Shown: positions 6,249-25,413 of the stretch, in pieces
Layout of the letters: each line of letters begins with the position of its first letter
Position numbering within the stretch: position 1 is the stretch's first letter
From: Pyrodictium abyssi
GTDB taxonomy: Archaea > Thermoproteota > Thermoprotei_A > Sulfolobales > Pyrodictiaceae
NCBI RefSeq assembly: GCF_036323395.1
Contig: NZ_AP028907.1
Coordinates: 480,001-512,000, forward strand
Reading direction: 5' to 3'
Length of the DNA stretch: 32,000 nucleotides
Notes under the pieces: model-generated
Databases searched by the model: none
Seen by the model: the letters and a program-made list of their open reading frames with translations, nothing else
Told to the model about the DNA's origin: nothing
Program-made: the position numbers and the translations under genes

Positions 6249-6254
6249 ACTGCT

Positions 6255-8366: not shown

Positions 8367-8384
8367 CACAGTGTCATAGCCCCC

Positions 8385-11543: not shown

Positions 11544-12527
11544 ATGGATCGCACGAATCTCGTTATTCTAGTGTTACTCGTGGCCTTGGCGGTCTCAAAT
11601 GCGGCATGGATAACGCTATACAGTCACAGCAAGTACAACGTGGAGAACCTAATCAGCGAGAACCAGAGGCTAAGCCGGCAGCTAGAACTACTCGCTAGCA
11701 GGGTGAAAGAACTAGAAGACAACAACACAAAACTCCTGCTCCAGCTCCGCGACATAAGCGACCATTACAAGAGGCTCCTAGACCTAATACAACAGGCTAA
11801 CAGCACAATAGCGAATGCAGCCGTCGTGGCCAGGCTACTGGATAACATAAACGCGAGCCTAACAACGCTATACATGTACACCAATACTCACGCATACTAT
11901 ACCCCCAACGTGAGGAGTCTATTCACGCCGGGCACTGTAGCAGACCTAGTAGTGCCGATAACCGGGCATCCAATGTACAATAGGGAACATGCGCTCGAAG
12001 ACATGAGGAAGATGTATGACTGGGTGCAGGAGAACATACAGGACGCAGTGGACCACAACTTTGTTGCAATAAAGAGGCCGGAATACGTGGACATAAACGG
12101 TGCGAAGTACTTCTATAGCTTCCAGATAGACATAGTGGATAACTATATACAGTCACCGTCGGAGACCCTACAGCGCTTGGCAGGCGACTGCGAGGACCAG
12201 TCCATACTGCTAGCATCAATGTACAAGGTCTACCTGGACAATGTCGGCGACGCGTGGACGCTCTGCATGTTCTCGGAGAAGTACGACCACTGTATAGTCG
12301 TGGCCTGGGTGGCCCCCCAGAAGAAGTTCGTGATAGCTGATCCCACGCTGGACTACTATGCTGAGGCGGATAGTCTGCGCAGTGCTCTAGACGACTGGCT
12401 AGCCTACGTGGGGATGGAGATGAAGCAAATCCATAGAATGATAGTATTCAACAATAAAGACTACATAGAGGATGTGTCCTACAACGTGATACACGCTCTC
12501 GAGGAGAAGACTAGCAGACAAAGCTGA
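11544..12527 (+). CDS. Membrane-anchored transglutaminase-like cysteine protease superfamily protein
   Basis: 327 aa. N-terminal TM, a coiled-coil stretch (ENQRLSRQLELLASRVKELEDNNTKLLLQL), then a Cys-His-Asp core: GDCEDQSILLASMY (Cys216, nt 12189-12191), YDHCIVVAW, VIADPT. GC is lower than in the neighbours (about 50% in three hand-counted 60-nt lines). Confidence 0.78.
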   Translation: MDRTNLVILVLLVALAVSNAAWITLYSHSKYNVENLISENQRLSRQLELLASRVKELEDNNTKLLLQLRDISDHYKRLLDLIQQANSTIANAAVVARLLDNINASLTTLYMYTNTHAYYTPNVRSLFTPGTVADLVVPITGHPMYNREHALEDMRKMYDWVQENIQDAVDHNFVAIKRPEYVDINGAKYFYSFQIDIVDNYIQSPSETLQRLAGDCEDQSILLASMYKVYLDNVGDAWTLCMFSEKYDHCIVVAWVAPQKKFVIADPTLDYYAEADSLRSALDDWLAYVGMEMKQIHRMIVFNNKDYIEDVSYNVIHALEEKTSRQS

Positions 12528-12541
12528 GGAGGTGGACGGTT

Positions 12542-13276
12542 ATGCCCCGTATGGCCGCTAGCCTGGTCGCTATAGCGATAATCGTGCTAGCGAGCATCGC
12601 GACGCCTACACTAGCCGAGCAGACTATAAAGGTGAAGGTCTACCACGCTGAGCTAGGCCCGTTCATCCAGACGCTAGCCGATGGGCGCAGGATAGAGGTA
12701 GAGATAGACGTCTACTACCCTGACACACTCTTCTACAGAGGCCCCGAAGAGGGCCTAGGCACAGTGAATTTCACGATAACAACCAACTGGACCGGGCCGT
12801 GGGACGGCATAGTAACAGTGCAAGTAGTAGACCCGGGGTACCGGATTGACCCCACCACGCTCAAGCCTGTAGAGTCTATGAACGCGTGGGCGGAAGGGGG
12901 AGGCACTATAGGCACAGGGACTCTCCACATAGCAAGCGGGGCCTATACCGGCCCCGTCAAGAACGTAACTGTCGTCGTAAGGCCGCACTCGCGCTACTTC
13001 ACAGCGCCCGCCGGCGACTATGTCGCCCAGTACTTCTTCAAGGTGAGGCTCGCCTTCTTCAAGCCTAGCGGCAGCAAGGTGCTAGGTGGCGACGTCAACG
13101 TCTACACCGATAGCCAGACAGCGCCCGCAGTCAAAGTAGTCGTCATAAAGCAGCCTAAAGGGGACGAGGGCCTAGCAAGCTCGGTAGCGCTCAACGCTGC
13201 TATAGCTGCAGCAGTTGTAGCAACAGGGTACGCGGTAGTCGAGTATACCCTAAGGCGCAGGAAGGAGAAACACTAG
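12542..13276 (+). CDS. Secreted beta-rich protein with C-terminal membrane anchor, unknown function
   Basis: 244 aa. Signal peptide ...ASIATPTLA|EQ, C-terminal TM (AIAAAVVATGYAVVEY) and a basic tail RRRKEKH. A strong SD (GGAGGTG) precedes the ATG, 14 nt after the previous stop. Confidence 0.65.
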   Translation: MPRMAASLVAIAIIVLASIATPTLAEQTIKVKVYHAELGPFIQTLADGRRIEVEIDVYYPDTLFYRGPEEGLGTVNFTITTNWTGPWDGIVTVQVVDPGYRIDPTTLKPVESMNAWAEGGGTIGTGTLHIASGAYTGPVKNVTVVVRPHSRYFTAPAGDYVAQYFFKVRLAFFKPSGSKVLGGDVNVYTDSQTAPAVKVVVIKQPKGDEGLASSVALNAAIAAAVVATGYAVVEYTLRRRKEKH

Positions 13277-13583
13277 TAGCCCCAGGCCAGCCTCCGGGGC
13301 GCCCCGCCAGGTTATCCAAGTGTTTTTACCCCCGGGCTTCGAGGGCGGCCGTTCCCTACTCCTATGCGGCGTACCCCGTGACGACGGGCTCTCTTGCGGG
13401 ATGCTGTCCATGGTGTCGTAGTCATCCCAGCTCCCCGGCCTGTGCGGCCTTTGTCGAAACACTGTACTAGGGTGCTCTTCTACTCTTGGCTTATTTATCG
13501 CGAGTTGAAATGCATTGACCGTTCCTGGACGGAGACAAGATTTTATTATAGGATTCAAATATCTTGCTCGCGGAAAAAATAAT

Positions 13584-13599
13584 AAATTAAATTTAAATA
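13584..13599 (+). promoter_or_regulatory. Putative TATA/BRE promoter element of the octaheme cytochrome gene
   Basis: AAATTAAATTTAAATA sits in an AT-rich block about 50-64 nt upstream of the ATG at 13648. The SD-like GGTGAGAGG lies at 13639-13647. Confidence 0.45.
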
Positions 13600-13647
13600 A
13601 CATGTAGAACCCATAGTGAACGTGGAGCAACAGAGTATGGTGAGAGG

Positions 13648-15636
13648 ATGCAGAAGCCTCTAGCCAAGGTAGTAGTCTTTTGGGTGATATCCATCTTCCT
13701 CCTCCCCAGCCTAGCGCCCCTAGCGCAGGCAGCGACATACAGCTGGGGCGAGGAGATCAGCCTCTCCGGTGTACAGCTCACGCAGGAGTCCAAGGACTGT
13801 GTAGAGTGTCACATGCGGGCGACACCCTTCATAGTGTACGACTGGTACAAGAGCAAGCACCGCATGGTTGGCGTGGGCTGCTACGAGTGCCACAGCGCTA
13901 AGCCCGGCACAAGGCCCGACGTCTACGAGCACTACGGCTACTACATAACGACACTAGTGACGCCTAAGCAGTGTGGCCGCTGCCACCCTGCGATAGCAGA
14001 GGAATTCCAGAAGAGCGTCCACGCGTTCGCCGGAGTACACGCCTACGTGCTAAAGGAGGAGCCAGCATACTGGATGATCCTGGCGAAGCAGTTTGGCTGG
14101 GACGAGCACTTCAAGGTACCAGCCGAGTACATTGAGACCGAGTGGGTACCCAAGATAGTGCGCGACTTCGTGGGTGACCAGAAGTACGGTAAGGCGGTGC
14201 TAGAGGAGGACCCGACCAACGCCATAATACCGTACAACCCGCTAGGCCTAAGCATTGACAACTACGTTGCCCAGAAGGCACTCTACATCTGGGGCATACG
14301 CGGCTGTCTAGGATGCCACGGCGTGCGCATGGACGTCAAGGACGCGTTCGCCTACCCGAGCCTAGACGAGCTAATGAAGTACATGAAGGAGGGCAAGGCC
14401 CCCGAGAAGGTAGTATACGACCCAGCATTCATGCACAACCACGGCATCGGCCGTGTGAACCCCGACGGCAGCCTAGGCAGCTGTGAGGCGTGCCACCCGT
14501 ACCACGGCTTCAGCGTAAAGATAGCCAGGAAGGGCGCCTACCAGGCATGTGGCCGCTGCCACACCGGCCCCGACCACCCGAACGACGAGCAGTGGAGCAA
14601 GAGCGTCCACGGCGCAATATTCTGGGGCGAGGCTGAGGACTGGGACTGGGACAAGCCGGTAAACAACTGGATGCCAGGCCGCGACTACAGGGCGCCGACA
14701 TGTGTAACCTGCCACATGGCCGCAGTGTTCAACGAGCGCGGTCAGGTCAAGTACGCTAGCAGCCACGACGTAGCCATAATAAGCAAGTTCAAGCTAGGCA
14801 AGTGGGTCTACACGCTACCACGTGTAGCAGGCCTACCCGACTTCGCCATACCGACAGCCACTGCGACACAGGCGCCGGTGTTCAAGAGTCCGACAACCGG
14901 TGACACAATAACGCTAGTATACCCAGAGCCCGACTGGAAGGTGCGCAGACAGAGAGCAATCGACATGTGTGCCCAGTGCCACACCAAGGAGTATGCAGCT
15001 GCATGGCTGAAGACCTACGACTGGATGATAATACTAGTAGACTACATGAGAGACGAGTACGTGCTAACCATAGCCAACATGCTGAAGGCTAAGGGCCTGT
15101 TTACGCCAATGGACGAGTGGATGGTGAGGAACCTAGGCGCTATGGCCAACAGGCCTACCAAGATGTCTGCAGCGCACTTCGGCCCCGACTTCACCTGGTG
15201 GGAGGGCATAATGCACTTCGCCGAGAAGATAGAGGAGTGGCTAATCGACGTCTACGAGAGGCCTGCTGTAGCCAAGAAGGCGCCAGAGATACGTGAGAAG
15301 ATTGAGGAGATACTGCCATGGTTCAGGGAGCAGTGGGAGGGCGAGGGCAGCACTGGTACAGTTCACACCCTAGCAGAGGTGAAGACAACTCTAGCTAAGG
15401 CCGTCGAGGTACCGGGCATGAAGGCCTATGCGGAGAAGGTGGAGAAGCTAGAGACGCCAGCTAAGCCACTAGTAACTAAGGCTGCTGTAACCACCGTAGG
15501 CGAGGTAGGCGAGCACAGCCTAGCACTACCGGGCGATGAGGCCAGTGTGGAGATGCCAGTGGCTATCTCTGCTGTGTTCCCGGCAGCGCCTCTACTACTA
15601 GTACTAGTGTCCTTTAGGAAGCGTGTAGCAGCCTAA
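13648..15636 (+). CDS. Octaheme cytochrome c of the hydroxylamine oxidoreductase (HAO) family, signal peptide plus C-terminal TM anchor
   Basis: 662 aa with eight CxxCH motifs: CVECH, CYECH, CGRCH, CLGCH, CEACH, CGRCH, CVTCH, CAQCH. Flanking context is collinear with Nitrosomonas HAO as I recall it: KDCVECH..TP..V..W..S.H; C..CH..H.FS; CHTGPDH....W..S.HG; APTC..CHM. Signal peptide ...LAQA|AT. The C-terminal hydrophobic helix plus FRKRVAA resembles the HAO C-terminal anchor. Confidence 0.9.
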   Translation: MQKPLAKVVVFWVISIFLLPSLAPLAQAATYSWGEEISLSGVQLTQESKDCVECHMRATPFIVYDWYKSKHRMVGVGCYECHSAKPGTRPDVYEHYGYYITTLVTPKQCGRCHPAIAEEFQKSVHAFAGVHAYVLKEEPAYWMILAKQFGWDEHFKVPAEYIETEWVPKIVRDFVGDQKYGKAVLEEDPTNAIIPYNPLGLSIDNYVAQKALYIWGIRGCLGCHGVRMDVKDAFAYPSLDELMKYMKEGKAPEKVVYDPAFMHNHGIGRVNPDGSLGSCEACHPYHGFSVKIARKGAYQACGRCHTGPDHPNDEQWSKSVHGAIFWGEAEDWDWDKPVNNWMPGRDYRAPTCVTCHMAAVFNERGQVKYASSHDVAIISKFKLGKWVYTLPRVAGLPDFAIPTATATQAPVFKSPTTGDTITLVYPEPDWKVRRQRAIDMCAQCHTKEYAAAWLKTYDWMIILVDYMRDEYVLTIANMLKAKGLFTPMDEWMVRNLGAMANRPTKMSAAHFGPDFTWWEGIMHFAEKIEEWLIDVYERPAVAKKAPEIREKIEEILPWFREQWEGEGSTGTVHTLAEVKTTLAKAVEVPGMKAYAEKVEKLETPAKPLVTKAAVTTVGEVGEHSLALPGDEASVEMPVAISAVFPAAPLLLVLVSFRKRVAA

Positions 15637-15652
15637 GGGGGCGGTGAGGGCT

Positions 15653-15677
15653 GGGGAGGAGACCCTCCCCTCTTTTT
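15653..15677 (+). terminator. Hairpin plus T-tract terminator after the octaheme gene
   Basis: GGGGAGG (15653-15659), loop AGAC, CCTCCCC (15664-15670), then TCTTTTT (15671-15677). It begins 17 nt after the TAA stop. Confidence 0.6.
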
Positions 15678-15891
15678 ACCGCGGCCTAGGCCCCTCCTGC
15701 GCCCCTATCGGCGCCGCCGTGAATCCACCTCGGCCTGTCTTAATATTTGTGTTCGTTAGCCTCTGGCAGCGTGTATACGTCTAGCCGATAGCCCTGGCTC
15801 GGGGCTGTTTCTTAGCTGGAGCGTTGGCGTCGAAGCGTTTAGCTTTATCAAGGGTTACAGATGCTCTTGACCACTGGTAGGGGGAGGCTTA

Positions 15892-17772
15892 TTGTACTGG
15901 GAGCCCGTGCTGTACCTAGCTCTGCTGTCCGAGGCTGTTGCGGCAGCACTTGCTATCCGCAGGGGGATGTGTGAGGGCTATGATAAACAGCTCGAGTCGA
16001 GCCCCATATACCGTGTAGGCTTTGTGCTTGTGTTGATGTCTTTTATCCTCGCTATGCGCTTCGACGTGATGGTGACAATACCCAGCCTTATGCTCCTAGC
16101 TTCCAGCCTAGCTGTACTAGCCGGAACCAGGCTCAGAGCCAGGATGAGCCCGGTTGAGGTACTTGGCTCGGCTATAGCGTTCTACTCTTTCGCACTTGCT
16201 TCACTTGCCGCCCGCGGCGCAGTGCTTGACATAGATCCGCGTGGTAAGGGGCTGCTGCCCTGGATTCTGGTGGCGCTTTCGGCTGGGCTAGGCCTCTTGT
16301 CGGCTCTATCTACGCTAGAGAAGCCCCGCAGGGGCATAGCTGCTTTCATGGGGCTGCTAAGCGGCGTGGGCCTCGTGGCTCTTGGCTACTGGCTGCTCAT
16401 AGAGACGCGTGTCGGAACGCCATTGTACAGTGATGCTCTAGGCTCTGCACTGCTTGCTCTGCTGCTCACCGGCGTCGCTATAGCATCTGGGCTGTCTCCG
16501 TACCTCGTCATGGCAGCTGGTATACTGGCCGGTCTCTTTGCTAGCCGCTCGCTACTGGCAGGCGGTGTGCCATACATCGCGTGTACTGGTAACTGTGGCT
16601 CGCTCGCTGTGGCGTGGCTTATCTTCTCGGTTATCGTGGCTCTGCCCCGGCTATACCTAGAGGCTGCTGAGATGCATGATAGGATACGCTCAGCGGACGT
16701 AAACGTGGCCCTATCACCCCCTGTGCTGGCATCTGCTTCAGTGCTTGCCGCTGGGATTGCAGCGTGGGTGGCGGCTCAAGGCACTGTGGGTATAGCCCCT
16801 ATGGCGGTCGTTGGTATACTTGCTGCAGCTGCTGCTGTCGGCTCTGCTGCCGTAGCTGTACTCCTCGTTGGGGGCGCTGTTGCTGTCTACAGCCCGGTGC
16901 TAGGCCTCATCGCGGCTGCTGCTGTAGCTCTTGTATTCACAGTGCTGCGGGGCCGAAGCATCGGCTTCTTCTCGGCCCCGAAGAGCGTCCTCCCCGGGCT
17001 ACTGCTCGTAGCCGTAGGGCTTGCAGCTGGAGGCTACATCGTCGCTACCCTGGGCCACGTGTCCGAAGCCAAGGCGTCTATTGAGGTGTCCGGCCTAGGC
17101 TCCCTGGCTCCCATACAGCCGCCGAGCGATGAAGCTACCCATGCGTTCTTCCAGCTCTACCTCGGCGTCAAGAACGAGACTATACTCTACGCTATCCTCG
17201 AGCCAACTGTGGGTGAAGAGGAGGCTCTAAGGATGGTTGAATTTGTCCATGCTATCAGGGTTGCTGCCGAGAAGAGAGGCATCCAGGACCCCTACAATAT
17301 AACCGAGCTTGACATACCACGCGAGATGCCGAGCCTGAAAGCGGTACTCGATGTTAATGGCATGCACGTCCCCGTGGAGATACCTGCCTCTAGTGTACTG
17401 TACGGCCATCCCTTCAATACTAGGGTCATCCAGGCTGGGCTAGACCTCGTCTCTGTAGGGCTTCCCGGTAATGCTACGAGCGCGCTGACTAGCGCCTACC
17501 TTGGTATGATCTCTGACCCGGGCCTCGTGGATGGGGATGCTCTGCGCTACTCCTTATTCGCGGCCATGGCTGTTAGCTGGAGGGAGACGGGCTCGCTCAA
17601 CATGACGGCTCAGCTGATGTTCGACATGTTGCTGGGCAACGTTTCCGGGTCCGGCACCGTAGTGGCGGGTGTTGATATTGCTAGGGCTCCGTTAGGGGTG
17701 CTAGCGCTAGCAGTATACGGGGCGTGTATAGTTGCCGCTCCCTTGGCTCCTATTTTTGCGCGCCGTAACTAA
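15892..17772 (+). CDS. Polytopic membrane protein with about 200-aa extracytoplasmic domain and C-terminal TM, unknown function
   Basis: 626 aa with a TTG start preceded by GGAGG (15883-15887). About 12 Ala/Leu/Gly-rich TM helices occupy the first 390 aa or so. A soluble domain with N-x-T/S sequons (NET, NIT, NAT, NMT, NVS) follows, then a terminal TM and ARRN. No heme or Fe-S motif is seen. Confidence 0.7.
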   Translation: MYWEPVLYLALLSEAVAAALAIRRGMCEGYDKQLESSPIYRVGFVLVLMSFILAMRFDVMVTIPSLMLLASSLAVLAGTRLRARMSPVEVLGSAIAFYSFALASLAARGAVLDIDPRGKGLLPWILVALSAGLGLLSALSTLEKPRRGIAAFMGLLSGVGLVALGYWLLIETRVGTPLYSDALGSALLALLLTGVAIASGLSPYLVMAAGILAGLFASRSLLAGGVPYIACTGNCGSLAVAWLIFSVIVALPRLYLEAAEMHDRIRSADVNVALSPPVLASASVLAAGIAAWVAAQGTVGIAPMAVVGILAAAAAVGSAAVAVLLVGGAVAVYSPVLGLIAAAAVALVFTVLRGRSIGFFSAPKSVLPGLLLVAVGLAAGGYIVATLGHVSEAKASIEVSGLGSLAPIQPPSDEATHAFFQLYLGVKNETILYAILEPTVGEEEALRMVEFVHAIRVAAEKRGIQDPYNITELDIPREMPSLKAVLDVNGMHVPVEIPASSVLYGHPFNTRVIQAGLDLVSVGLPGNATSALTSAYLGMISDPGLVDGDALRYSLFAAMAVSWRETGSLNMTAQLMFDMLLGNVSGSGTVVAGVDIARAPLGVLALAVYGACIVAAPLAPIFARRN

Positions 17773-17850
17773 ATTAAATGAATAATTGTTTGTGCTGAAT
17801 GTATCGATATTTTTGAGACAAAGGCTAAAAGTATTGTCAATGCTTTTTCC

Positions 17851-17857
17851 TATAAAA
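17851..17857 (+). promoter_or_regulatory. Putative TATA box of the 13-14-heme cytochrome gene
   Basis: TATAAAA lies 23-29 nt upstream of the ATG at 17880, inside a 107-nt AT-rich intergenic region. GGAGGGG at 17864-17870 could alternatively act as an SD. Confidence 0.45.
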
Positions 17858-17879
17858 CCGGCGGAGGGGTGAAGCCGCC

Positions 17880-19151
17880 ATGGACGCTAGGCAAGCTGCT
17901 AGAACAGTGGTAATAGTAGCTGTATTCTTAGTAGCGCTGCTAGGCTACTGGCGGCTGACGTTACCAGGCTACTTTGAAGGCATGAGCCTCTGTGGCGAGG
18001 GCTGCCATGTAACCAACACCCTCGACTACAAGAAGATTACACACCCGTTCTGGTGCATTGGCTGCCACGGATTCGGTGTCAAGAGCGAAATTATGCCGGG
18101 GATACCGCTGCAGCGAGACCCCGAGATAGAGATGCTTGTCGAGGAGCACGGTGAATGCGTCATGTGCCACAGTGTGCCCGGAGAATTCCACTGGAAGCAC
18201 ATCAACGCCACCGAGGAAGAACTAGCCAAACTAGGGCTAGAGCGTCCAGTGCAGTGTACAGACTGCCACACCACAGCCTATCACGGCGGCCACAAGGATA
18301 TGCCTAAAGACGACTCGTGTCTCAAGTGCCATGATACTGAGAAGCTCCATCCAGACATGAATAAGAAGCTTGTCTCAGCGTGTACCAAGTGCCACTCCGA
18401 GGAGCCCGCGGTAGACTGGACTGTGTTCAGAAAGGGCCAGCTGGGCTATGGCTTCGTAGCCGATGCTGGCCTAGCTCTAGCCTCCGACATAGGTGTCGTG
18501 AAGTCTGTGGCTCCTGGCTGCCTCCTATGCCATAACACGCCGGAGGCACAGGGGCACATAAAGCATGTAGGCAAGAAGTACGAGGGTAGAGAAGTAGACT
18601 GTCTCGATTGCCACAGGAACGATATACCGCACGGCGAGAAAGTGGGAACCAGTGTATGTCTCGACTGCCACCAGCCCGGTGAAGTAAAGTGCCACGATGT
18701 TAACTTCGAAGAGTATCTCGTCGACTGCTACAAGTGCCACGGCGGCTTCAAGCTCGCCAACGAGACGCTATACCTAACCGGAGTCGGGTGTAGGGGCTGC
18801 CACGCTGATACACTCAAGAAGATAACAAGCCTAGGACTACACCTCAAACACACAAAGTACTTCAACTGCGATAAGTGCCACGACATCGAATCTGGCAGCC
18901 ACAAAGCCTTCGTAGAGTCTGCCGGTGATGTGGAGAAGTGTCTAGAATGCCATACAGAGGCAGGAGGCGTAAAGCCAGAAGCACTCAAGGATATCAAATC
19001 CACGGTTGCGCTAACCTTCAGCGAGGACATAAAGCACGTAGACCTCGTGAAGAGGGCCGACGGTAACTGCTTCAAGTGCCACGATGAATGGTATGTCAGC
19101 GGCAAGCCCAAGGTATTCTACTACAAGGTGCAAGATAGTGATAAGGGCTAG
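17880..19151 (+). CDS. Membrane-anchored multiheme cytochrome c (13 CxxCH + 1 CxxxCH)
   Basis: 423 aa with an N-terminal TM (TVVIVAVFLVALLGYW). Motifs: CGEGCH (CX3CH, nt 17991-18008), then CIGCH, CVMCH, CTDCH, CLKCH, CTKCH, CLLCH, CLDCH, CLDCH, CYKCH, CRGCH, CDKCH, CLECH, CFKCH. About 29 His in total, enough for bis-His ligation of every heme. Confidence 0.92.
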   Translation: MDARQAARTVVIVAVFLVALLGYWRLTLPGYFEGMSLCGEGCHVTNTLDYKKITHPFWCIGCHGFGVKSEIMPGIPLQRDPEIEMLVEEHGECVMCHSVPGEFHWKHINATEEELAKLGLERPVQCTDCHTTAYHGGHKDMPKDDSCLKCHDTEKLHPDMNKKLVSACTKCHSEEPAVDWTVFRKGQLGYGFVADAGLALASDIGVVKSVAPGCLLCHNTPEAQGHIKHVGKKYEGREVDCLDCHRNDIPHGEKVGTSVCLDCHQPGEVKCHDVNFEEYLVDCYKCHGGFKLANETLYLTGVGCRGCHADTLKKITSLGLHLKHTKYFNCDKCHDIESGSHKAFVESAGDVEKCLECHTEAGGVKPEALKDIKSTVALTFSEDIKHVDLVKRADGNCFKCHDEWYVSGKPKVFYYKVQDSDKG

Positions 19152-19172
19152 CTTTTGCGCTACTTGTCCCGC

Positions 19173-19200
19173 CTTATGGTTAGAAACTTATGGTTAGAAA
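19173..19200. repeat. Perfect 14-bp tandem direct repeat (CTTATGGTTAGAAA x2)
   Basis: Read directly: 19173-19186 equals 19187-19200. It lies in the 80-nt gap between the multiheme gene stop (19151) and the next start (19232). Confidence 0.9.
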
Positions 19201-19231
19201 AGGATGTGTCCCCGGGGGTGCCGTGTAGGCC

Positions 19232-19978
19232 TTGAGCACGGTTAGGACCGAGGCCGCGGGTAGCCAGGCCCCCAGCTGGCTCCAGGAGCATCTGTGGCTC
19301 CGCCTACGCGCCTTATTCGACCTAGTGCTGCAGCTCAGCGTGCTCCGGCGCCGCCGTGATATAGGCGAATGGCTGGTTGTATGGCTTACATACCTGGGCA
19401 TAGTCGGCGCCATACTAATGGCCATAGTAACGGCTGCGACGAGGGGCGTAATCCTAGCCGCGAACACGGTTCTAAGGCCGCATGCGCTGCCGATAATCAG
19501 CCCAGAGCTCGAGAAGATATTCATAAGCTGGCCTCAGCTAGCCATAGGTATGGGGTACCACGCGCACATAATTACAGCGCTATACTTCGCAGCCCCAGCG
19601 TACACAGCCGCCTTCATCGCAGCCTTCCTGTTGAAGGACGAGTGGCTGCGCAAATTCCTATTCCCAAGGGGGATAAACATTAGGGATCTGTCTGACCACC
19701 TGCTGCTAGTGCTGAGCTTCGCCACGGCCGTCATGGTCGCGGTGATAGCGCCCAGGATGGCTGCTAGCGGTGCACTAGTGCCGGGGCTCCAGGCGCTAGC
19801 CCCGCATATAGCAGTAGGGACCTTCTGGATAATCTACTCCCTAGCGATACGCGGGCTGGCATACCGCATCGTCGGCGCGGCACTAGGACTGCTATACGTG
19901 GTGATCTTCAACCACTACCCGAGGGAGGCCTTCCGGGACCTGTTCGAGGAGGACCCCTGGGTAAGCCTACTACGCTAA
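19232..19978 (+). CDS. His-rich 5-TM membrane protein (candidate b-type cytochrome / quinol-interacting subunit; function unproven)
   Basis: 248 aa with a TTG start of uncertain position. About five TM helices carry His at or near the helix ends (GYHAHIITALYF, DHLLLVLSF, APHIAVGTFW, NHYP). It is co-oriented with and immediately downstream of the multiheme cytochrome. Confidence 0.55.
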   Translation: MSTVRTEAAGSQAPSWLQEHLWLRLRALFDLVLQLSVLRRRRDIGEWLVVWLTYLGIVGAILMAIVTAATRGVILAANTVLRPHALPIISPELEKIFISWPQLAIGMGYHAHIITALYFAAPAYTAAFIAAFLLKDEWLRKFLFPRGINIRDLSDHLLLVLSFATAVMVAVIAPRMAASGALVPGLQALAPHIAVGTFWIIYSLAIRGLAYRIVGAALGLLYVVIFNHYPREAFRDLFEEDPWVSLLR

Positions 19979-20232: not shown

Positions 20233-21315
20233 ATGCTGTGGTTTGTGCTCACGACTGGCGCCTGTAACCTGCGCTGTAGGTACTGCGGCGGCGGGTTCCC
20301 GGCCGAGTACTCTCCGCCGCGCCCCCTGTACCGGGCCGAGGAGCTCGTGGAGACCATTGCGCGGCTTGACCCGGACCCGGTGGTCTTCTTCTACGGGGGC
20401 GAGCCCTTGCTGAACCCGAGGCTGATAATGGAGGTAATGGACCTCCTGCCGGGGGCCAGGTACGGGATACAGACGAACGGCCTCCTCTACCGCCGGCTCC
20501 CCGAGGAGTACTGGGCGAGGTTCAGCCGTGTCCTCCTCAGCATAGACGGCGTCGAGAAGGTCACGGACAAGTGGAGGGGCCGGGGCGTCTACCGCCGCGT
20601 GCTGGAGGCCCTAGGGTTCCTCCTGGAGCTGCGTAGGCGCCGTGGCGGCCCCAGGGTCCTGGTCGCCAGGATGGCGGCGACCCGTGACACCGTGATAGAC
20701 CGTGACGTGCTCCACCTCCTCGGCCTCGGGTTCGACAAGGCCCACTGGCAGCTCGACGCTGTCTGGAGCGAGCCCTGGCCCCTAGGCGAGTGGGCCCGCG
20801 GGATATACCTCCCGGGGCTCCGGAGGCTCGCCGAGTGGGTCGCCCGGAGGCCCTGGGAGAGGCTCAGCAGGGTAGCCCCGTTCCACGGGATAGTCTCGGC
20901 GCTCTACAGCGGGGGCTACCGCTGGTACCCCTGCGGCGCTGGCCGCGGCGCGGTGGCGGTGAACACGGATGGGAGGATACTGGCGTGCCCGATAGCGGTC
21001 CGCGAGCAGTGGGCGGTGCTGGGTAGGCTGGGCGAGTGGAGCGGCAGGCTCGCGCCCAGCAGCATGCTGCCGGAGAGGTGCCGCCGGTGCAGCTACCTGC
21101 CCCTTTGCGGGGGCCGCTGCCTCTACGCCCAGCTGGAGTCGGATTACTGGCCCCGCGAGCTACTCGAGGAGCTGGACAGGGTGACCCGTAGGACTATAGA
21201 CATTGTTCTCTCGGTCGTGGTGCCGGCGGTGGAGAGGGCTGTGGAGAAAGGGCTTATGAGCCCGGGTGACGTCTTCTACGACCCCCTGGAGGAGTCCACC
21301 GAGGTCATACCCTAG
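20233..21315 (+). CDS. Radical SAM enzyme with C-terminal SPASM/twitch-type auxiliary cluster domain
   Basis: 360 aa. CNLRCRYC (CxxxCxxC, nt 20263-20286), GGEPLL. C-terminal Cys clusters YPCGAGRGAVAVNTDGRILACP and CRRCSYLPLCGGRC are typical of SPASM maturases and AhbD/NirJ-type enzymes. Confidence 0.85.
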   Translation: MLWFVLTTGACNLRCRYCGGGFPAEYSPPRPLYRAEELVETIARLDPDPVVFFYGGEPLLNPRLIMEVMDLLPGARYGIQTNGLLYRRLPEEYWARFSRVLLSIDGVEKVTDKWRGRGVYRRVLEALGFLLELRRRRGGPRVLVARMAATRDTVIDRDVLHLLGLGFDKAHWQLDAVWSEPWPLGEWARGIYLPGLRRLAEWVARRPWERLSRVAPFHGIVSALYSGGYRWYPCGAGRGAVAVNTDGRILACPIAVREQWAVLGRLGEWSGRLAPSSMLPERCRRCSYLPLCGGRCLYAQLESDYWPRELLEELDRVTRRTIDIVLSVVVPAVERAVEKGLMSPGDVFYDPLEESTEVIP

Positions 21316-22730
21316 GGCTGCTCGTCCTCGTCCCCGCAGGTCTCTACCGCCTTGTCGGCGTAGTAGACGGCCTGCTGCACCAGGTACTTGATGGGGCCTA
21401 GGTAGCGGCGGGGGTCGAGCTCCTCGTAGAGCCTGGTGAGGCCGAAGTACTTGCCTATCCTGGGGTCCTCAGCCGCCACCTCGTAGAGGGGCTTCCCGGT
21501 CCTCGCGGCCTTCTCGGCGAGCTCCTTGGCTATCCGGTAGGCCTCGGAGCGCTTCATGCCGAGCTCCCTTATCAGCAGGTTCATCAGCGCCTCCGCCATT
21601 ATGGCGCCGCGGCTCATCATGAGGTTCTCGTACATCCTCTCCGGGCTGAAGCGGAGCCTGCTTATCAGCTCCCAGGTGTCGTCGAGCATCTGGTCGATGG
21701 TCAGCAGGAGGTGTGGTATAATCACCCTCTCGGCGCTGCTGTTGCTGAGGTCGCGCTCGTGCCACAGTACTATGTTCTCGTAGAAGGCTAGTACTAGGCT
21801 CCGGGCTACCCGGGCGAGCCCGCTTATCCTCTCAGCGGTGACGGGGTTCGCCTTGTGGGGCATAGCGCTGCTGCCTAGCGTGCCGGTACGGTCCTCCCAC
21901 ATCTCCATTATCTCGGGCCTGGCCAGCTCCCGGACCTCGGTGGCGAAGCGGTCCAGCTGGCTCGCGAGGATGGCCAGGACCGAGGCTAGCTCGGCGAAGC
22001 CGTCGCGGGGCGCGACCTGCGTCGTTATGAGGTGGGGCTCGAGGCCCAGGTGCTGGCACACTATTTCGCGGATACGGAGCCCCTTGATGCCCCACGCGGC
22101 CATGGTGCCTACGGCGCCGCCTATCTTGGCGCGTATAGCCCTCTTCATAGCGTCGCAGAGCCGTTCGTGGCTCCGGGCTAGCTCGTAGACGTAGTTGGCC
22201 AGCTTGAAGCCGAGGGTTATGGGGAGGGCGTGCTGGCCGTGGGTACGCCCCACCATCACTATGTCCACGGTCTCCTCGGCCTTGGTGGCCAGGGCCTCGA
22301 TGACCTTAGCCAACTTGCTCTCGATGATTATGAGGGCCTCGCGGAGTGTCAGCGCCCACGCGGTGTCTATTATGTCGTTGCTTGTGGCGCCGTAGTGTAT
22401 CCACCGGGCGACCTCGTCCCCGCCCTTCTCGGCCAGCAGCTCTATGAGCGCTATAACCTCGTGGCCAGTCTTCTTCTCCCTCTCCGCTACCTCCTCCGGC
22501 GTTATCTTCTTCGCGGCCTCGCGTATCTTCACGGCGGCCTCGGGCGGGGCGAGCCCCACCTCAACGAGGGCGTCCATGAGCGCGATCTCGACGAGTATCA
22601 TGTTCTTGAGTATCTCGCTGCGGGAGAGGACGTACTTCATCTTGGGGCTTCCGTAGCGCCAGTCGAAGACGCAGACGGAGTCGGGGCAGCTCTTGTAGTA
22701 GATGTCCTCGTCGAAGCCTATCAGGGTCAA
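21312..22730 (-). CDS. purB: Adenylosuccinate lyase
   Basis: 472 aa. Fumarate-lyase signature GSSAMPHKANP, with overall length and N-terminal TSNDI-type segment (GATSNDIIDTA) typical of PurB. It shares an operon with purA. Confidence 0.9.
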   Translation of the reverse strand: MTLIGFDEDIYYKSCPDSVCVFDWRYGSPKMKYVLSRSEILKNMILVEIALMDALVEVGLAPPEAAVKIREAAKKITPEEVAEREKKTGHEVIALIELLAEKGGDEVARWIHYGATSNDIIDTAWALTLREALIIIESKLAKVIEALATKAEETVDIVMVGRTHGQHALPITLGFKLANYVYELARSHERLCDAMKRAIRAKIGGAVGTMAAWGIKGLRIREIVCQHLGLEPHLITTQVAPRDGFAELASVLAILASQLDRFATEVRELARPEIMEMWEDRTGTLGSSAMPHKANPVTAERISGLARVARSLVLAFYENIVLWHERDLSNSSAERVIIPHLLLTIDQMLDDTWELISRLRFSPERMYENLMMSRGAIMAEALMNLLIRELGMKRSEAYRIAKELAEKAARTGKPLYEVAAEDPRIGKYFGLTRLYEELDPRRYLGPIKYLVQQAVYYADKAVETCGDEDEQP

Positions 22731-22805
22731 GGCGTAGGGGCACCTCCCGCGGGGTCCAGGTGCCTAGGAGCATGGCGGCCCACAAACATGTGTGGCGGTG
22801 ATGGG

Positions 22806-24239
22806 CTAGTCCATGGCCTCTACCGGTAGCCGAGCCTCGGCCCCGAGCCTCTCCGCGGCCCCGCGCGCCGCTAGGTAGCCGGTGGCTGCTGCTACGTTTA
22901 TCCCGCGGCTCAGCCCAGCCCCGTCCCCCGCGGCGTATAGGCCTGGCATGCTCGTCTCCATGGTGGGCGTCTTTACGCGTACCCGGAGCGAGTAGTACTT
23001 CACCTCGGGCGCGTAGAGGAGCGTGTGCTTGCTCCACACTCCTGGCGCTAGGTCGTCGAGCCTCTCCAGGCCCTCGAGGATGTCTGTGAGGACCCGATAG
23101 GGCAGCGCCATGCCTATATCGCCCGGCGTGGCCTCCCGGAGAGTCGGCTCGACAACGCTCCTCTCTATACGGTCCCGTGTGCTCCTCCGCCCGGCTAGGA
23201 GGTCGCCGAGCCTCTGGACCAGGGGCTCGCCACCGCCCAGCTTAGTAGCCATCCTCGCTATGCTGCGGCCATACTCCAGCGCGTCCTCCATCGGGTCGGT
23301 TAGCTTTATTGTGACCAGGAAGGCGAAGTTCGTGTTCATGCTCCGGCGGGACGCGAAGGTCTCCCCGTTGACCCCGACCAGGCCGTCGCCGTAAACCTCC
23401 TTGACCACGTAGCCGCCCGGGTTGGTGCAGAACGTCCGCACCCTGTCGTCGAAGGTGCGTGTGTGGAATATGATCTTGGGGTCCCATACGACGCTCGTGA
23501 GAGGCTCCATCACCCGGTAGGGCACCTCCACGCGTACACCCACGTCGAGCGGCCCCGGCTCGGTCTCGAGGCCGAGGCGCCGTGCCTCCCGGGCGAGCCA
23601 GTGGGCCCCGCTACGGCCCGGCGCGAGTATCACAGTCCTGGCCTCTAGCTCGCCGCGGCTGGTCCTCAGGATGTAGCCGCCCCCGGGCCGGGGCTCGACA
23701 CGCTCCACCCGGGTGAGCGTGTGCAGCCTGACACCCTTCTCCACGAGGTACACCGTCATAGCCTCTATGACCTTAACAGTGTTCTCTGTGCCCATGTGCC
23801 GCTGCCTTATCGGGATGAACCTGGCCCCGGCGCGTATCGCCTTCCTCTCTAGCTCGGAGACCCGGGAGGGGTCGGGCTCGAAGAGCCGGTCCCGGGGCGC
23901 CCCGAAGTAGAGGAACACCTGGTCCACGAGCTCTATCAGGCGCTGGGCCTCCTCCCAGCCGCCGACGAGCCGGTGGAGCTCGCCGCCCACGTCGGGCCTC
24001 AGGTTTATGATGCCGCTGCTGAGCGCCCCTGCGCCACCGACCCCCTGCATGATTGCGCAGGGCTTGCAGTTGGCGCAGCGGCCGGTCTCGCGTAGCGGGC
24101 ACCGCCTCTGGGAGGCCCGTAGCCCCTCGTCCAGCAGGGCTACCCGTAGCCGGCCCCGCCCGGCCTCCCCGGCTAGGGCGAGGGCCGCGAATAGCCCGGC
24201 TGGGCCGGCGCCGACCACGGCTACGTCGTAGAGGGGCAC
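22806..24239 (-). CDS. FAD-dependent oxidoreductase (COG2509-like) with N-terminal four-Cys cluster
   Basis: 477 aa. Rossmann dinucleotide motif DVAVVGAGPAGLFAA. Cys47-X7-Cys55-X2-Cys58-X2-Cys61 (nt 24057-24101). GVGGAG..SSG segment and C-terminal GLYAAGDGAG FAD motif. Confidence 0.82.
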   Translation of the reverse strand: MPLYDVAVVGAGPAGLFAALALAGEAGRGRLRVALLDEGLRASQRRCPLRETGRCANCKPCAIMQGVGGAGALSSGIINLRPDVGGELHRLVGGWEEAQRLIELVDQVFLYFGAPRDRLFEPDPSRVSELERKAIRAGARFIPIRQRHMGTENTVKVIEAMTVYLVEKGVRLHTLTRVERVEPRPGGGYILRTSRGELEARTVILAPGRSGAHWLAREARRLGLETEPGPLDVGVRVEVPYRVMEPLTSVVWDPKIIFHTRTFDDRVRTFCTNPGGYVVKEVYGDGLVGVNGETFASRRSMNTNFAFLVTIKLTDPMEDALEYGRSIARMATKLGGGEPLVQRLGDLLAGRRSTRDRIERSVVEPTLREATPGDIGMALPYRVLTDILEGLERLDDLAPGVWSKHTLLYAPEVKYYSLRVRVKTPTMETSMPGLYAAGDGAGLSRGINVAAATGYLAARGAAERLGAEARLPVEAMD

Positions 24240-24242
24240 CGC

Positions 24243-25259
24243 TTACTCCACCCCCTTCTCCCTGGAGAGGTTGATGGTGCACTCGACGTCCTCGCCCGTC
24301 CCCACCAGGGCCACGGGGACGCCTAGCTTGTCCTCGACCTCCTCTATCCAGGCACGGGCCTCCCTGGGCAGCTCCTCCCAGCGCCTACGGCACCTTGCCT
24401 CGGGGAACACACGATCGATCTTCGTCAGTGCCACGTCTGTGGCCGTGTTGGCGCGCACGGCGCGCAGAGCTAGCTCGAGGTTGAAGGGCGCTACCCGGCG
24501 GGGCCTCCCCGTGACGGTCCCGTACTCGGCCCAGCCCAGCTCCACGGCCTTCTCGTGGGGCAGCTCGCCGGGCAGGGGGCCCGAGCCAACACGGGTCACG
24601 TAGGCCTTGAGGACCACGGTTATCCTCTCCACGCTGCGGGGGCCTAGGCCCAGCTCGCTCAGCGCAGCAGCGGCGGTGGTGTCGCGGCTGGTGACGTAGG
24701 GGTAGGTGCCGTGGTAGAGGCTCAGCCAGTAGCCCTGCGACGCCTCCACCAGTATCAGCTCGCCCCTATCGAGAGCCTCGAGCATCTCGAGCTGGGTGTC
24801 AGTGACCAGGTCCTCTAGCTCCGGGTAGTCGCGTGCGAGGCGGAGCCTGCGGAGCACGCGTTCCACCATAGCCGCGCCTACGCCGGTCCCAGTGGAGCCA
24901 ATGCGCTTCATGAGGTGCTGGTCGCTCCTCTCCCGGGCCACGTGCTCCGAGGTTATGACGCCCGTGTTGTAGTCCAGCCATATCCTGCCCCGGAGCCCTA
25001 GGGCCTCGACCTCGGAGAGGAAGACCTCGAGGTCTACGAGGGCGCCGCGGGCTATGTAGAGCCGGGTCCCGGGGTTGAGGAAGCTGCTCGGGGAGGCGCG
25101 GAGCTTCCACACCCGGCCCCTGTGCACGACCGTGTGGCCCGCGTTAGTGGCCCCGGTGCGGGCGCTCCCCCAGGGCCTCCGGGACAGAGCCAGATAGGCG
25201 GCTACGCGGCCCTTCCCCTCGTCGCCGAAGAAGCCCCCAACCACTATGTGGACGGGCAC
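24243..25259 (-). CDS. purA: Adenylosuccinate synthetase (short archaeal form)
   Basis: 338 aa. P-loop GGFFGDEGKGRV, NAGHTV, GSTGTGVG, TKID. Its stop lies 3 nt before the start of the next gene. Confidence 0.9.
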   Translation of the reverse strand: MPVHIVVGGFFGDEGKGRVAAYLALSRRPWGSARTGATNAGHTVVHRGRVWKLRASPSSFLNPGTRLYIARGALVDLEVFLSEVEALGLRGRIWLDYNTGVITSEHVARERSDQHLMKRIGSTGTGVGAAMVERVLRRLRLARDYPELEDLVTDTQLEMLEALDRGELILVEASQGYWLSLYHGTYPYVTSRDTTAAAALSELGLGPRSVERITVVLKAYVTRVGSGPLPGELPHEKAVELGWAEYGTVTGRPRRVAPFNLELALRAVRANTATDVALTKIDRVFPEARCRRRWEELPREARAWIEEVEDKLGVPVALVGTGEDVECTINLSREKGVE

Positions 25260-25302
25260 AGGGTTCCCAAGCTCTTGTGTCGCTAAGGCGGCTCAGCACT
25301 CT

Positions 25303-25309
25303 ATATAAC
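25303..25309 (-). promoter_or_regulatory. Putative TATA box of the purA operon
   Basis: Minus-strand TTATATA lies 44-50 nt upstream of the purA start at 25259, in an AT-richer intergenic stretch. Confidence 0.4.
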
Positions 25310-25413
25310 GTTTTCTAACGTGTGCTACCAGAACACGATATTGCATCACGCCATGTAAAAACACGTATATGGGTTGCAGTGCAGCCCGGGAGAAAGCCGC
25401 AGCAGCCCAGCGG

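Follow-up and report, generated by a model that had tools for sequence, protein, structure and literature searches.

A putative membrane-anchored haem-wire subunit of a six-gene respiratory module in Pyrodictium abyssi

Introduction

How electrons pass from the quinone pool to outward-facing reductases in the Pyrodictiaceae, which grow at ~100 °C, is addressed by a single published proposal, the 'Mcc' module. In P. delaneyi, Pyrde_0784-0787 were described as encoding a membrane cytochrome complex, regarded as novel, that has an 8-haem and a 13-haem subunit, and it was proposed that Mcc oxidizes methylmenaquinol and supplies outward-facing reductases (Kashyap & Holden 2021, PMC8105010). The module was linked to growth on ferrihydrite, for which this species needs direct mineral contact, and the 8-haem subunit rose 60-fold on this substrate, while the 13-haem protein was detected by mass spectrometry and not quantified (PMC8105010).

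A window of 32,000 nucleotides from P. abyssi (contig NZ_AP028907.1, positions 480,001 to 512,000), in which the products of gene F and of a CcmF gene match proteins named P. abyssi at 100%, contains a gene that bears on this question. Gene E (17880-19151; this and all other features given below lie on the plus strand) is an open reading frame with an ATG start that encodes a predicted membrane-anchored multihaem cytochrome c of 423 aa. Here we ask how many haems this protein may carry, which cytochromes it is related to, and where in an electron path it and its neighbours could act.

Gene E is an orthologue of the Mcc '13-heme' cytochrome

By sequence comparison, gene E is the orthologue of P. 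delaneyi Pdsh_01720/Pyrde_0786, the '13-heme' cytochrome of the putative Mcc complex (P0002; 74% identity, 99% coverage, E=5e-233), and it is 53% identical to Pyrolobus fumarii Pyrfu_0786 (P0003; E=1.5e-143). Aside from its host, P. abyssi, the gene matches these two orthologues over its full length: each product has 13 CxxCH motifs plus one CX3CH and a CHGFGV-x-S signature, and each gene is accompanied by genes for an octahaem cytochrome, a polytopic membrane protein and a protein with five transmembrane (TM) helices. The published account differs from ours in that it counts 13 haems with the CX3CH unmentioned, where we find 13+1 sites, treats Mcc as four genes rather than a six-gene module, and assigns the Pyrolobus proteins 11 and 6 haems, where we count 13+1 and 8 (PMC8105010). 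What is new here for the Mcc family is a likely 14th haem site, a module of six genes, and a conserved, family-specific region at aa 29-110.

Haem sites and domain layout

A motif scan of the 423 residues located 13 CxxCH motifs, starting at aa 59, 93, 126, 147, 168, 214, 241, 260, 283, 304, 330, 354 and 397, and one CX3CH, the same count as in the initial annotation. Its figure of about one haem site per 30 residues also agrees with ours, as 14 sites are spread over 423 aa, but its description of the protein as extremely haem-dense was overstated, since ~30 aa per haem falls within the 24-35 range of PpcA and the HMC chains and is normal for c3/c7-type cytochromes. Because 2000 shuffles of the gene E residues gave a mean of 0.13 and a maximum of 3 CxxCH motifs, a chance origin of these motifs is excluded. 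All 14 Cys motifs are invariant in an alignment of 14 homologues with identities down to 33%, and so are 11 His residues outside the motifs, which are candidates for distal haem ligands.

Pfam profiles place the protein in the superfamily of c3/c7-type multihaem cytochromes, with scores above both gathering thresholds (PF14537, 45.6 bits, threshold 25; PF14522, 43.9 bits, threshold 24.8). The best PF14522 (Cytochrome_C7) stretch is a putative c7-like trihaem unit at aa 122-173 (18243-18398) that would hold haems 4-6; its motifs are spaced by 21 residues within aa 126-172, and its distal-ligand candidates H138 and H157 are invariant. Sites 7-14 (aa 214-401; 18519-19082) lie in a generic c3/c7-type repeat region according to library profile matches, as 2504 library proteins, for the most part giant multihaem cytochromes, show repeated matches to it. 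It is after haem 7 that relatives of gene E carry insertions of two or five further CxxCH motifs, bringing the totals to 15+1 sites in P0011-13 and 18+1 in P0010. No internal sequence repeat was found in gene E by self-BLAST. An AlphaFold2 (AF2) model built from the 14-sequence family alignment reached a mean pLDDT of 61 and a pTM of 0.47, with aa 27-96 below 50, and a Foldseek search of the PDB with this model of pLDDT 61 returned a single match of no significance (E=6.4).

Among characterized cytochromes, HmcA of the Desulfovibrio Hmc complex resembles gene E in being a chain of c3/c7-like modules with ~30-35 aa per haem that is attached to a membrane complex, and HMC chain 2e84_A, though a weak match, is among the best in the PDB (E=1.7e-8, query 79-366). 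HMC has 16 haems in chains that measure 514-560 aa in the PDB search, and PpcA has three in 71 aa, which together yield the range of 24-35 aa per haem. HmcA differs in being soluble and in docking on subunits of the NrfD-like, NarI-like and FeS types, which are absent from the module of gene E, and gene E scores 37.5 bits against the HmcA equivalog NF045713, whose cut-off is 400. Likewise, its score with the decahaem DmsE/MtrA profile TIGR03508 is 37.8 bits, below the 192.2 required. The poly-c7 protein GSU1996 of Geobacter and PpcA share the PF14522/PF14537 matches, and PpcA aligns to aa 271-323, but these are soluble bacterial proteins that have neither the N-terminal trihaem module nor the anchor.

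A single anchor and a family-specific juxtamembrane module

The hydrophobic core V10-W24, within a hydrophobic stretch at aa 3-30, is the only TM-like segment of gene E, and the AF2 model places a helix at aa 3-33 with a pLDDT of ~80. This candidate signal-anchor or TM helix (aa ~9-27; 17904-17960) is followed 14 residues past W24 by C38, as had been noted at the outset. With R4 and R8 in the N-terminus, this end of the protein is predicted to lie inside and the haem domain outside. The family alignment contains no visible small-residue cleavage site at -3/-1, and for this reason retention of the anchor appears probable.

Immediately after the anchor comes the part of gene E that, at the level of sequence, is best conserved and specific to its family (aa 29-110; 17964-18209), and that would hold haems 1-3. 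It contains an invariant P29-G30-Y31, with mostly F at position 32, the CX3CH of haem 1, WC-x-x-CHGFGV-x-S at haem 2, and C93-x-x-CH at haem 3, followed by H104 and H107. Across these 82 columns 27 are invariant, and identity to the Pyrolobus protein is 76% compared with 36-48% in other parts of the protein. For library proteins outside the family, the best stretches among the matches listed start at profile position 92 or later, and a profile of aa 1-125 found no cytochrome relatives in the PDB at E<=10.

The first motif of this module, CGEGCH (C38, C42, H43; 17991-18008), is where and what the initial annotation had said, a non-canonical CX3CH. The two Cys and the His are invariant and the three-residue spacing is fixed in 14 of 14 aligned homologues, with G41 nearly invariant; the motif was also seen by eye in P0030 and P0031. 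Ccm systems accept CX3CH and CX4CH motifs. Given this invariance across the 14 aligned members, it is very likely that CX3CH truly serves as a 14th haem site, and gene E would then carry 14 haems. With 14 haems of 0.6165 kDa each, the 46.9-kDa polypeptide would reach a holo mass of ~55.6 kDa. The tryptic peptide that bears the motif is predicted to be LTLPGYFEGMSLCGEGCHVTNTLDYK.

A six-gene module with orphan membrane proteins

Gene E is the fifth of six genes, A to F, whose order is kept in Pyrolobus, a Hyperthermus MAG, a Thermoproteota MAG and metagenome contigs. A scan of the genome collection with strict back-translated patterns found at least five loci, with the P. abyssi genome of the window not among them. 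This respiratory cluster was seen only in Pyrodictium-type hyperthermophilic archaea. All six products have a signal peptide and/or TM helices.

Genes A and B (11544-13276) are assigned to the module from synteny and invariant columns. Gene A encodes 327 aa with a TM helix, a coiled coil and a transglutaminase-like core with invariant C216/H249/D266, and gene B 244 aa with a signal peptide, a beta-rich domain and a C-terminal TM helix; searches with this gene pair turned up 4u65_E, 'putative cystine protease', only weakly (E=0.006), and DUF553 below the cut-off (E=0.0066). Gene C (13648-15636) encodes a 662-aa octahaem cytochrome of the IhOCC/HAO clade (eight CxxCH, PF13447) that is the orthologue of Pyrde_0784, has a signal peptide and a C-terminal TM anchor as read from its terminal hydrophobic segments, and matches 4qo5_A at E=8e-47 and HAO and HDH chains at 1e-11 to 3e-23. 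Ignicoccus is the organism from which IhOCC, the nearest relative of gene C in the PDB, derives, though no Ignicoccus-named match to E or F was among those found; therefore, C-type enzymes can work without E and F. In P. delaneyi, the D and F orthologues showed no differential production while that of C rose 60-fold (PMC8105010), so the Mcc genes may not act as a single unit.

Gene D (15892-17772) encodes a 626-aa polytopic membrane protein that belongs to no known family in Pfam, NCBIfam and PDB searches; it has ~10 TM helices, an external domain of ~200 aa and a TM helix at the C-terminus, and is only 28% identical to its Pyrolobus orthologue. Gene F (19232-19978), assigned from alignment and synteny, encodes a His-rich orphan membrane protein of 248 aa that has ~5 TM helices and is 65% identical to its Pyrolobus counterpart; Pfam offered nothing credible for it (best E=0.29), and NCBIfam and PDB profile searches gave no match. 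With a topology derived from hydrophobic segments and the positive-inside rule, its invariant H84, H110, H112 and H192 fall on the predicted outer face and D155-H156 on the predicted inner face, and the invariant residues cluster at outer helix ends and in a predicted outer loop, which includes R82-P83-H84 and W100-P101-Q102. A single-sequence structure model of gene F had a pLDDT of 59.5 and a pTM of 0.32. No quinone-binding or haem-b signature was recognized in D or F by Pfam, NCBIfam and PDB profile searches. Gene F is always directly downstream of E, and its 15 relatives all come from the taxa that have the module; it is most likely the direct membrane partner of E.

The spacers within the module (B-C, 371 bp; C-D, 255 bp; D-E, 107 bp with a TATA-like box) would allow separate transcripts. 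Upstream of gene E, the sequence 17851-17872 contains TATAAA (17851-17856, 29 nt before the ATG) and the Shine-Dalgarno-like GGAGGGGTGA (17863-17872) in a spacer of 37% GC with T-runs, and may act as the gene's own promoter or as an internal ribosome-binding site.

Cytochrome c maturation genes, assigned with Pfam and NCBIfam, lie directly upstream of the module (7170-11384). The first (7170-8366) encodes a thioredoxin-CcdA/DsbD-like fusion, and the other (8385-11384) a divergent haem lyase that is a second one of the CcmF type. Their products contain CPMC, PCVLP and CSLP motifs; the CcmF is a paralogue, and its linkage to the module is conserved within Pyrodictium.

P. abyssi has a classical H2:sulfur oxidoreductase complex that contains haems b and c (PMC4429474). 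A link of the six-gene module to this complex was considered and set aside; the module is also found in relatives that do not reduce sulfur.

Base composition

The GC content of gene E is 53.5% compared with 60.5% for the window. The values for single 60-nt lines lie between 0.47 and 0.60, and a line of about 48%, from which the initial annotation had raised composition bias or acquisition, is thus real but not representative of the gene. The deficit lies in codon positions 1 and 2 (GC1/GC2 of 0.58/0.38 in E, 0.67/0.48 in the upstream and 0.63/0.44 in the downstream flanking gene), and GC3 (0.64) is inside the range of the module. The low GC is thus attributed to amino-acid composition, which upholds the first of the two explanations; K, E, D, N, I, Y and F make up 35% of E residues compared with 21-26% in flanking genes. 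Horizontal acquisition of gene E alone was rejected on codon-position GC. The 13-kb cytochrome block as a whole has a GC3 of 0.61-0.73 compared with 0.86-0.89 in downstream housekeeping genes.

Proposed role of gene E

The most reasonable reading of gene E, and one already raised as a long haem wire, is that it acts as the membrane-anchored haem-wire subunit of the Pyrodictiaceae Mcc respiratory module, to which we give a rough probability of 0.55. Orthology, motif conservation, synteny and the single hydrophobic anchor segment are observed in the sequences; the haem occupancy of all 14 sites, the quinol donor, the partner contacts and the direction of electron flow are what we infer from them. 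The pre-protein would be exported with its N-terminal helix retained as an anchor, and the archaeal Ccm system, for which a CcmF paralogue and a thioredoxin-CcdA fusion are encoded nearby, would attach 14 c-haems at the outer face of the cytoplasmic membrane. The juxtamembrane trihaem module (aa 29-110), with its first haem on CX3CH, would then sit at the membrane surface and be reduced there by (methyl)menaquinol, in a P-side site that may be formed with the co-conserved F, and possibly D too, and the other c3/c7-type haems would pass the electrons outward to the octahaem protein C and/or other outward-facing reductases.

This arrangement can be compared to that of nitrifiers, in which electrons move from HAO to cytochrome c554 and cM552, and of anammox bacteria, in which a Rieske/cyt b cluster contains an HAO-like octahaem. 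In each case an octahaem of the HAO clade is, or would be, joined to the quinone pool via multihaem carriers and a membrane-anchored cytochrome. The proposed system differs in that one anchored 14-haem protein would stand for both c554 and cM552, its membrane partners are orphans, and the gene C octahaem is IhOCC-like, that is, of the reductive type.

Alternative explanations

The initial annotation likened the N-terminal layout to that of NapC/NrfH, and there is a corresponding possibility that gene E is an enlarged true member of the NapC/NirT/NrfH family, in which a diverged NrfH domain oxidizes quinol alone and other haems were added later. The likeness holds for a single TM anchor closely before a first haem motif near the membrane, and plausibly for a role in moving menaquinol electrons to periplasmic-side reductases, as in NrfH, CymA and NapC. 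In addition, any invariant His between H43 and H104 is part of a haem motif, and one or more of haems 1-3 may thus have no internal His distal ligand; haem 1 of NrfH has none either. However, kinship finds no echo in family profiles, as PF03264 (Cytochrom_NNT) is absent at E<=10 from both the full protein and aa 1-180, NCBIfam TIGR03153 (NrfH) gives no match at E<=0.01, and the N-terminal profile matches no PDB cytochrome. A full-length profile search of the PDB did return NrfH 2j7a_C weakly (E=1.4e-4), but at residues 261-372, outside the N-terminus. Gene E also has 14 sites with a CX3CH first, and obligate orphan membrane partners, whereas the NapC-type proteins are tetrahaem (or pentahaem) with a canonical CXXCH(XM) first, and a sequence relationship between the N-termini is undetectable. 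Since P0054 and P0058, unrelated archaeal-looking multihaem cytochromes, also have a TM anchor and then an early CxxCH, the layout is generic. Membership in this family is thus very improbable, and gene E would rather be the functional equivalent of an NrfH/CymA joined to a long wire, outside that family.

The other alternatives concern the reach of the wire and the number of its haems. Gene E could itself be a terminal extracellular conduit through the quasi-periplasm and S-layer that reduces insoluble acceptors such as Fe(III) oxides and sulfur on direct contact and independently of C, a reading that draws on the mineral-contact need and ferrihydrite-linked module of P. delaneyi, on the repeated matches to giant multihaem cytochromes, and on the haem-adding insertions, if these are read as wire lengthening. 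We consider it unlikely, given that 14 haems would span ~12-15 nm at most and the Pyrodictium quasi-periplasm measures ~35 nm, that conservation is highest at the membrane-proximal and not the distal end, and that P. abyssi, Pyrolobus and Hyperthermus-type genomes have the module too. To our knowledge, none of these organisms is known as an iron reducer, and we know of no report that P. abyssi respires iron or nitrate. Polymerization into an extracellular nanowire like OmcS/OmcE/OmcZ or the archaeal PcECN/AvECN, an idea that appeals to the high haem content, the archaeal origin and the initial suggestion of filaments, is barely credible: the PDB profile search gave no significant similarity to any filament subunit, its one such match among the chains listed being OmcE 7tfs_A at E=0.19 over ~35 residues, and the retained-looking TM anchor and obligate operon context with membrane proteins point elsewhere. 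Known filament subunits have 4-8 haems, a lower or similar haem density and inter-subunit His ligation, and gene E gives no sign of the last. It is also improbable that CX3CH is a haem-free disulfide or metal site and that gene E is a 13-haem protein, as its orthologue was counted (PMC8105010). Such a reading would suit the 11 invariant distal His candidates for 14 sites, and the motif lies in a region poorly modelled by AF2, but the invariant C, C and H at a fixed spacing down to 33% identity, the second CcmF linked to the module, and the status of CX3CH as an accepted variant attachment motif, predicted at haem 1 of an MtrA clade, all favour a haem there.

Implications for respiration in the Pyrodictiaceae

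Beyond a haem-wire role for gene E, the juxtamembrane module and F could form an undescribed class of menaquinol:cytochrome c oxidoreductase, with the second CcmF as a dedicated CX3CH lyase, an extension that we regard as tentative and, on balance, doubtful. If true, the E-F oxidoreductase would be unrelated to NapC/NrfH, bc1 and NrfD/ACIII-type systems and would replace bc1 in the Pyrodictiaceae. These predictions can be approached experimentally through the CX3CH peptide, through the invariant His of F and through the CcmF paralogue next to the module.

The probable 14 sites, the conserved membrane-proximal module, and the constant company of an octahaem of the IhOCC type and of two membrane orphans make the Mcc proposal testable. 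If the membrane part turns out to be a new quinol-oxidizing device, the few known quinol:cytochrome c oxidoreductases would gain a further family; otherwise, gene E would be one more anchored multihaem electron carrier.

A haem-rich member of a published cytochrome family

Gene E (17880-19151, forward strand) is an open frame with an ATG start, an upstream in-frame TAA at 17853-17855 and a 423-aa product. A regular-expression count places 13 CxxCH motifs at residues 59, 93, 126, 147, 168, 214, 241, 260, 283, 304, 330, 354 and 397, plus one CX3CH (C38-G-E-G-C42-H43, nt 17991-18008), and found no CxxCH in the other reading frames of this stretch. Across 2000 random permutations of the E residues, CxxCH occurred 0.13 times on average and at most 3 times, so the 13 + 1 sites of the initial annotation are confirmed. 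Its single N-terminal transmembrane helix closely followed by a Cys motif is also borne out, as residues 3-30 form the sole hydrophobic segment (core V10-W24) and C38 comes 14 residues after that core. The epithet 'extremely' haem-dense is unjustified, since ~30 aa per haem is usual for c3/c7-type multihaem proteins (PpcA, 71 aa for 3 haems; 16-haem HMC chains, 514-560 aa; lengths from a PDB profile search). Outside the two cytochrome genes, the only CxxCH in the window (nt 31459) lies in a 179-aa ORF (31220-31759, forward strand), which could be a monohaem protein or a chance occurrence.

Only 13 real relatives of E were returned by a search of 5.8 billion proteins; identity is 74% (99% coverage) to Pyrodictium delaneyi Pdsh_01720 and 53% to Pyrolobus fumarii Pyrfu_0786. 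When 1.84 billion cluster representatives were searched exhaustively with a profile, only four full-length clusters emerged, and the other 2,500 matches were mostly giant multihaem cytochromes, whose best stretches among those listed start at position 92 or beyond and end by ~418. E is the representative in P. abyssi of a family reported earlier from P. delaneyi and Pyrolobus as part of the putative membrane cytochrome complex, Mcc (Pyrde_0784-0787; Kashyap & Holden 2021, PMC8105010). In P. delaneyi, growth on ferrihydrite rather than nitrate raised the abundance of the octahaem subunit Pyrde_0784 60-fold, the '13-heme' subunit Pyrde_0786 was detected without being quantified, and the complex was proposed to pass electrons from methylmenaquinol to outward-facing molybdopterin reductases (PMC8105010). 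No further mention of the Mcc loci was found in the literature searched beyond that paper. The Pyrolobus complex was stated to contain 11- and 6-haem cytochromes (PMC8105010), whereas we count 13 CxxCH and 1 CX3CH in the P. fumarii orthologue of E (10001-11272 of locus L001) and 8 CxxCH in the octahaem orthologue (6046-8046 of the same locus). The metagenome-assembled genome (MAG) 'Pyrodictium delaneyi SZUA-1523' carries two versions of E on separate contigs (L006 and L007; 84% and 71% identity to the window), reflecting either a mixed bin or a duplicated module.

Conservation of the cytochrome

Across a 14-sequence alignment of the E family, the His and distal Cys of all 13 CxxCH motifs and the three CX3CH residues are invariant, and the first Cys of site 3 is replaced by Ser in one member. 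The CX3CH was changed to CxxCH in none of the 14, and this invariant motif is a probable 14th haem site; that it binds no haem is unlikely. Eleven His outside the motifs are also invariant (H104, H107, H138, H157, H226, H229, H272, H321, H324, H341 and H386), with none in the alignment between H43 and H104. Since 14 sites face 11 conserved internal His partners, the shortfall would most plausibly fall at haems 1-3.

Conservation is strongly uneven along the protein. Residues 29-110 contain 27 invariant columns out of 82 and are 76% identical to Pyrolobus, and the remaining segments are 36-48% identical. This juxtamembrane module comprises an invariant P29-G30-Y31 (with F next in most members), the CX3CH, the stretch W58-C-x-x-C-H-G-F-G-V-x-S and the third site; it is specific to the E family, and a profile of residues 1-125 yielded no PDB cytochrome at E<=10. 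The rest of E is generic and c3/c7-type: PF14537 and PF14522 match above threshold, a c7-like unit occupies residues 122-173, PpcA aligns to residues 271-323, and weak PDB matches include the 16-haem HMC (E=1.7e-8) and octahaem nitrite reductase. In some relatives, insertions after haem 7 add two or five CxxCH, which suggests that the wire is lengthened in modules. The database proteins P0054, P0058 and P0071 form a separate group of ~410-aa, transmembrane-anchored multihaem cytochromes that have no CX3CH module and have in common with E only the C-terminal ~170 residues (GLH..H, C..CH, G.CF.CH); they suggest that anchored archaeal-type wires make up a broader superfamily.

A six-gene module and adjacent maturation genes

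E is the fifth gene of a module (A-F, all on the forward strand) whose order is conserved in three MAGs (P. delaneyi-like, Hyperthermus and Thermoproteota), in Pyrolobus fumarii and on a metagenome contig, and in part on two shorter contigs. Gene A (11544-12527) encodes a type-II anchored protein (N-terminal transmembrane helix) with a coiled coil and invariant Cys216, His249 and Asp266 in an AGDCED context; it weakly resembles periplasmic cysteine proteases of the transglutaminase-like LapG type (4u65_E, E=0.006; 4fgo_A, E=0.64), and the cytochrome module would thus have an anchored protease or transglutaminase as a constant component. Gene B (12542-13276) encodes a signal peptide, a beta-rich domain and a C-terminal transmembrane helix. 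Gene C (13648-15636) encodes an octahaem protein of the clade of HAO and the Ignicoccus octahaem cytochrome IhOCC (4qo5_A, E=8e-47), with a signal peptide, an extra C-terminal tail and a C-terminal transmembrane anchor. Genes D (15892-17772; ~10 transmembrane helices and an external domain) and F (19232-19978; ~5 helices) belong to no family. Against their Pyrolobus counterparts, C is the best conserved (76% identity), followed by F (65%), E (53%), A and B (46% each) and D (28%). No Ignicoccus-named homologue of E or F was found in a database that holds Ignicoccus CcmFs.

All 15 relatives of F occur in the same taxa as the module; none was found in the PDB, no Pfam match was credible (best E=0.29), and the UniRef cluster label 'YihY/BrkB' was supported by no search. 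F has five invariant His (H84, H110, H112, H156 and H192), H156 following an equally invariant D155, and a very strongly conserved outer loop (R82-P83-H84-A85-L86-P87-I88 ... S99-W100-P101-Q102). By the positive-inside rule, its N-terminus would lie inside, and N78...Q102, the stretch with the highest conservation, would lie with H110, H112 and H192 on the outer face, where the conserved module of E would have to sit.

Directly upstream of the module are a Trx-CcdA fusion (7170-8366, forward strand; thioredoxin CPMC at aa 84, CcdA/DsbD-like membrane domain with PCVLP at aa 214 and CSLP at aa 319), probably the branch of cytochrome c maturation that reduces thiols, and a second, divergent CcmF-type haem lyase (8385-11384, forward strand). 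A further CcmF of P. abyssi, P0183, shares 49% identity with the window copy; P0183 is the orthologue of the CcmFs found in P. delaneyi (76%) and P. occultum (71%). The divergent copy lies directly upstream of A in the P. delaneyi-like contig L007 (71% identity over aa 510-977), and none is linked to the module in Pyrolobus or at loci L003 and L009. It could, like NrfEFG or CcsA1, serve as a dedicated lyase, although the CX3CH is kept even where no linked divergent CcmF was seen.

Downstream of F lies a TIGR04084 radical SAM/SPASM gene of AF0577 type (20233-21315, forward strand; 415 bits against a cut-off of 225), as in both P. delaneyi-like contigs (91% identity in L006, fragments in L007); the corresponding position in Pyrolobus is taken by another radical SAM gene, which is B12-binding and lies on the other strand. 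At 347-3772 (reverse strand), an archaeal type IV pilus/archaellum-like assembly set comprises two T2SS-F-like membrane proteins and a T2SS-E-type ATPase.

Base composition

The GC content of E is lower than that of the flanking membrane genes, as initially annotated (53.5% against 60.5% for the window; single 60-nt lines, 0.47-0.60). Of the two causes offered, composition bias stands and acquisition of E alone does not: the deficit is in codon positions 1 and 2 (GC1, GC2 and GC3 of 0.58, 0.38 and 0.64 in E, against 0.67, 0.48 and 0.61 in D and 0.63, 0.44 and 0.71 in F), and, E being intermediate between D and F in GC3, its low GC is an effect of amino acid composition (K+E+D+N+I+Y+F 35% in E, 21% in D, 26% in F). 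GC3 across the block 7170-19978 is 0.61-0.73, against 0.76-0.80 in the secretion-type genes at 347-3772 and 0.86-0.89 in the radical SAM, adenylosuccinate lyase, FAD protein, adenylosuccinate synthetase and B3/4 genes, the five housekeeping genes of 20233-27309. The gap from the housekeeping genes may reflect either acquisition of the block or different codon usage. The D-E spacer (17773-17879) is 37% GC, with T-runs, GGAGGGGTGA at 17863-17872 and, 29 nt ahead of the start codon of E (ATG), a TATAAA; TATA-like AT-rich elements also precede A and C.

A probable anchored haem wire

The sequences show the orthology of E, its conserved motifs and synteny and a single hydrophobic anchor; we infer which sites hold haem, what donates and accepts electrons, which way they flow and which partners are in contact. 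The likeliest reading, at a probability of about 0.55, makes E the anchored haem wire of the Mcc module: the Ccm system would place 14 c-haems outside the membrane, the conserved trihaem module at the membrane surface would receive electrons from (methyl)menaquinol at a site common to E and F, and the c3/c7-type haems would pass them to octahaem C and/or other outward-facing reductases.

The topology noted initially, a transmembrane helix with an early haem motif, does resemble NrfH and NapC, and family membership is rejected: PF03264 and TIGR03153 are unmatched, a profile of the N-terminal region does not find NrfH, and the weak NrfH match of the full-length profile falls on residues 261-372. 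The archaeal-looking P0054 and P0058, related to E only in the C-terminal half, also begin with a transmembrane helix and an early CxxCH, so this layout is the generic tether for multihaem proteins where cells lack an outer membrane. True homology to NrfH is thus highly improbable; a functional analogy, in which a membrane-proximal haem takes electrons from quinol, is reasonable and agrees with the published proposal. It is doubtful that E is itself the terminal extracellular conduit and scarcely credible that it polymerises as a nanowire.

Several points count against E as the Mcc wire. D and F were not co-regulated with C in P. delaneyi (PMC8105010), the long spacers and the TATAAA suggest multiple transcripts, no quinone or haem-b signature is recognisable in F or D, and the predicted structural model of E is too poor to judge chain continuity.

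To the published outline this analysis adds a probable 14th site and a family-specific juxtamembrane module in E, a module of six rather than four genes, linkage of a CcmF paralogue to it in Pyrodictium, and revised Pyrolobus haem counts. Already published in outline and not proven by this analysis, the idea that Mcc could represent a new type of hyperthermophilic archaeal quinol:cytochrome c oxidoreductase is plausible.
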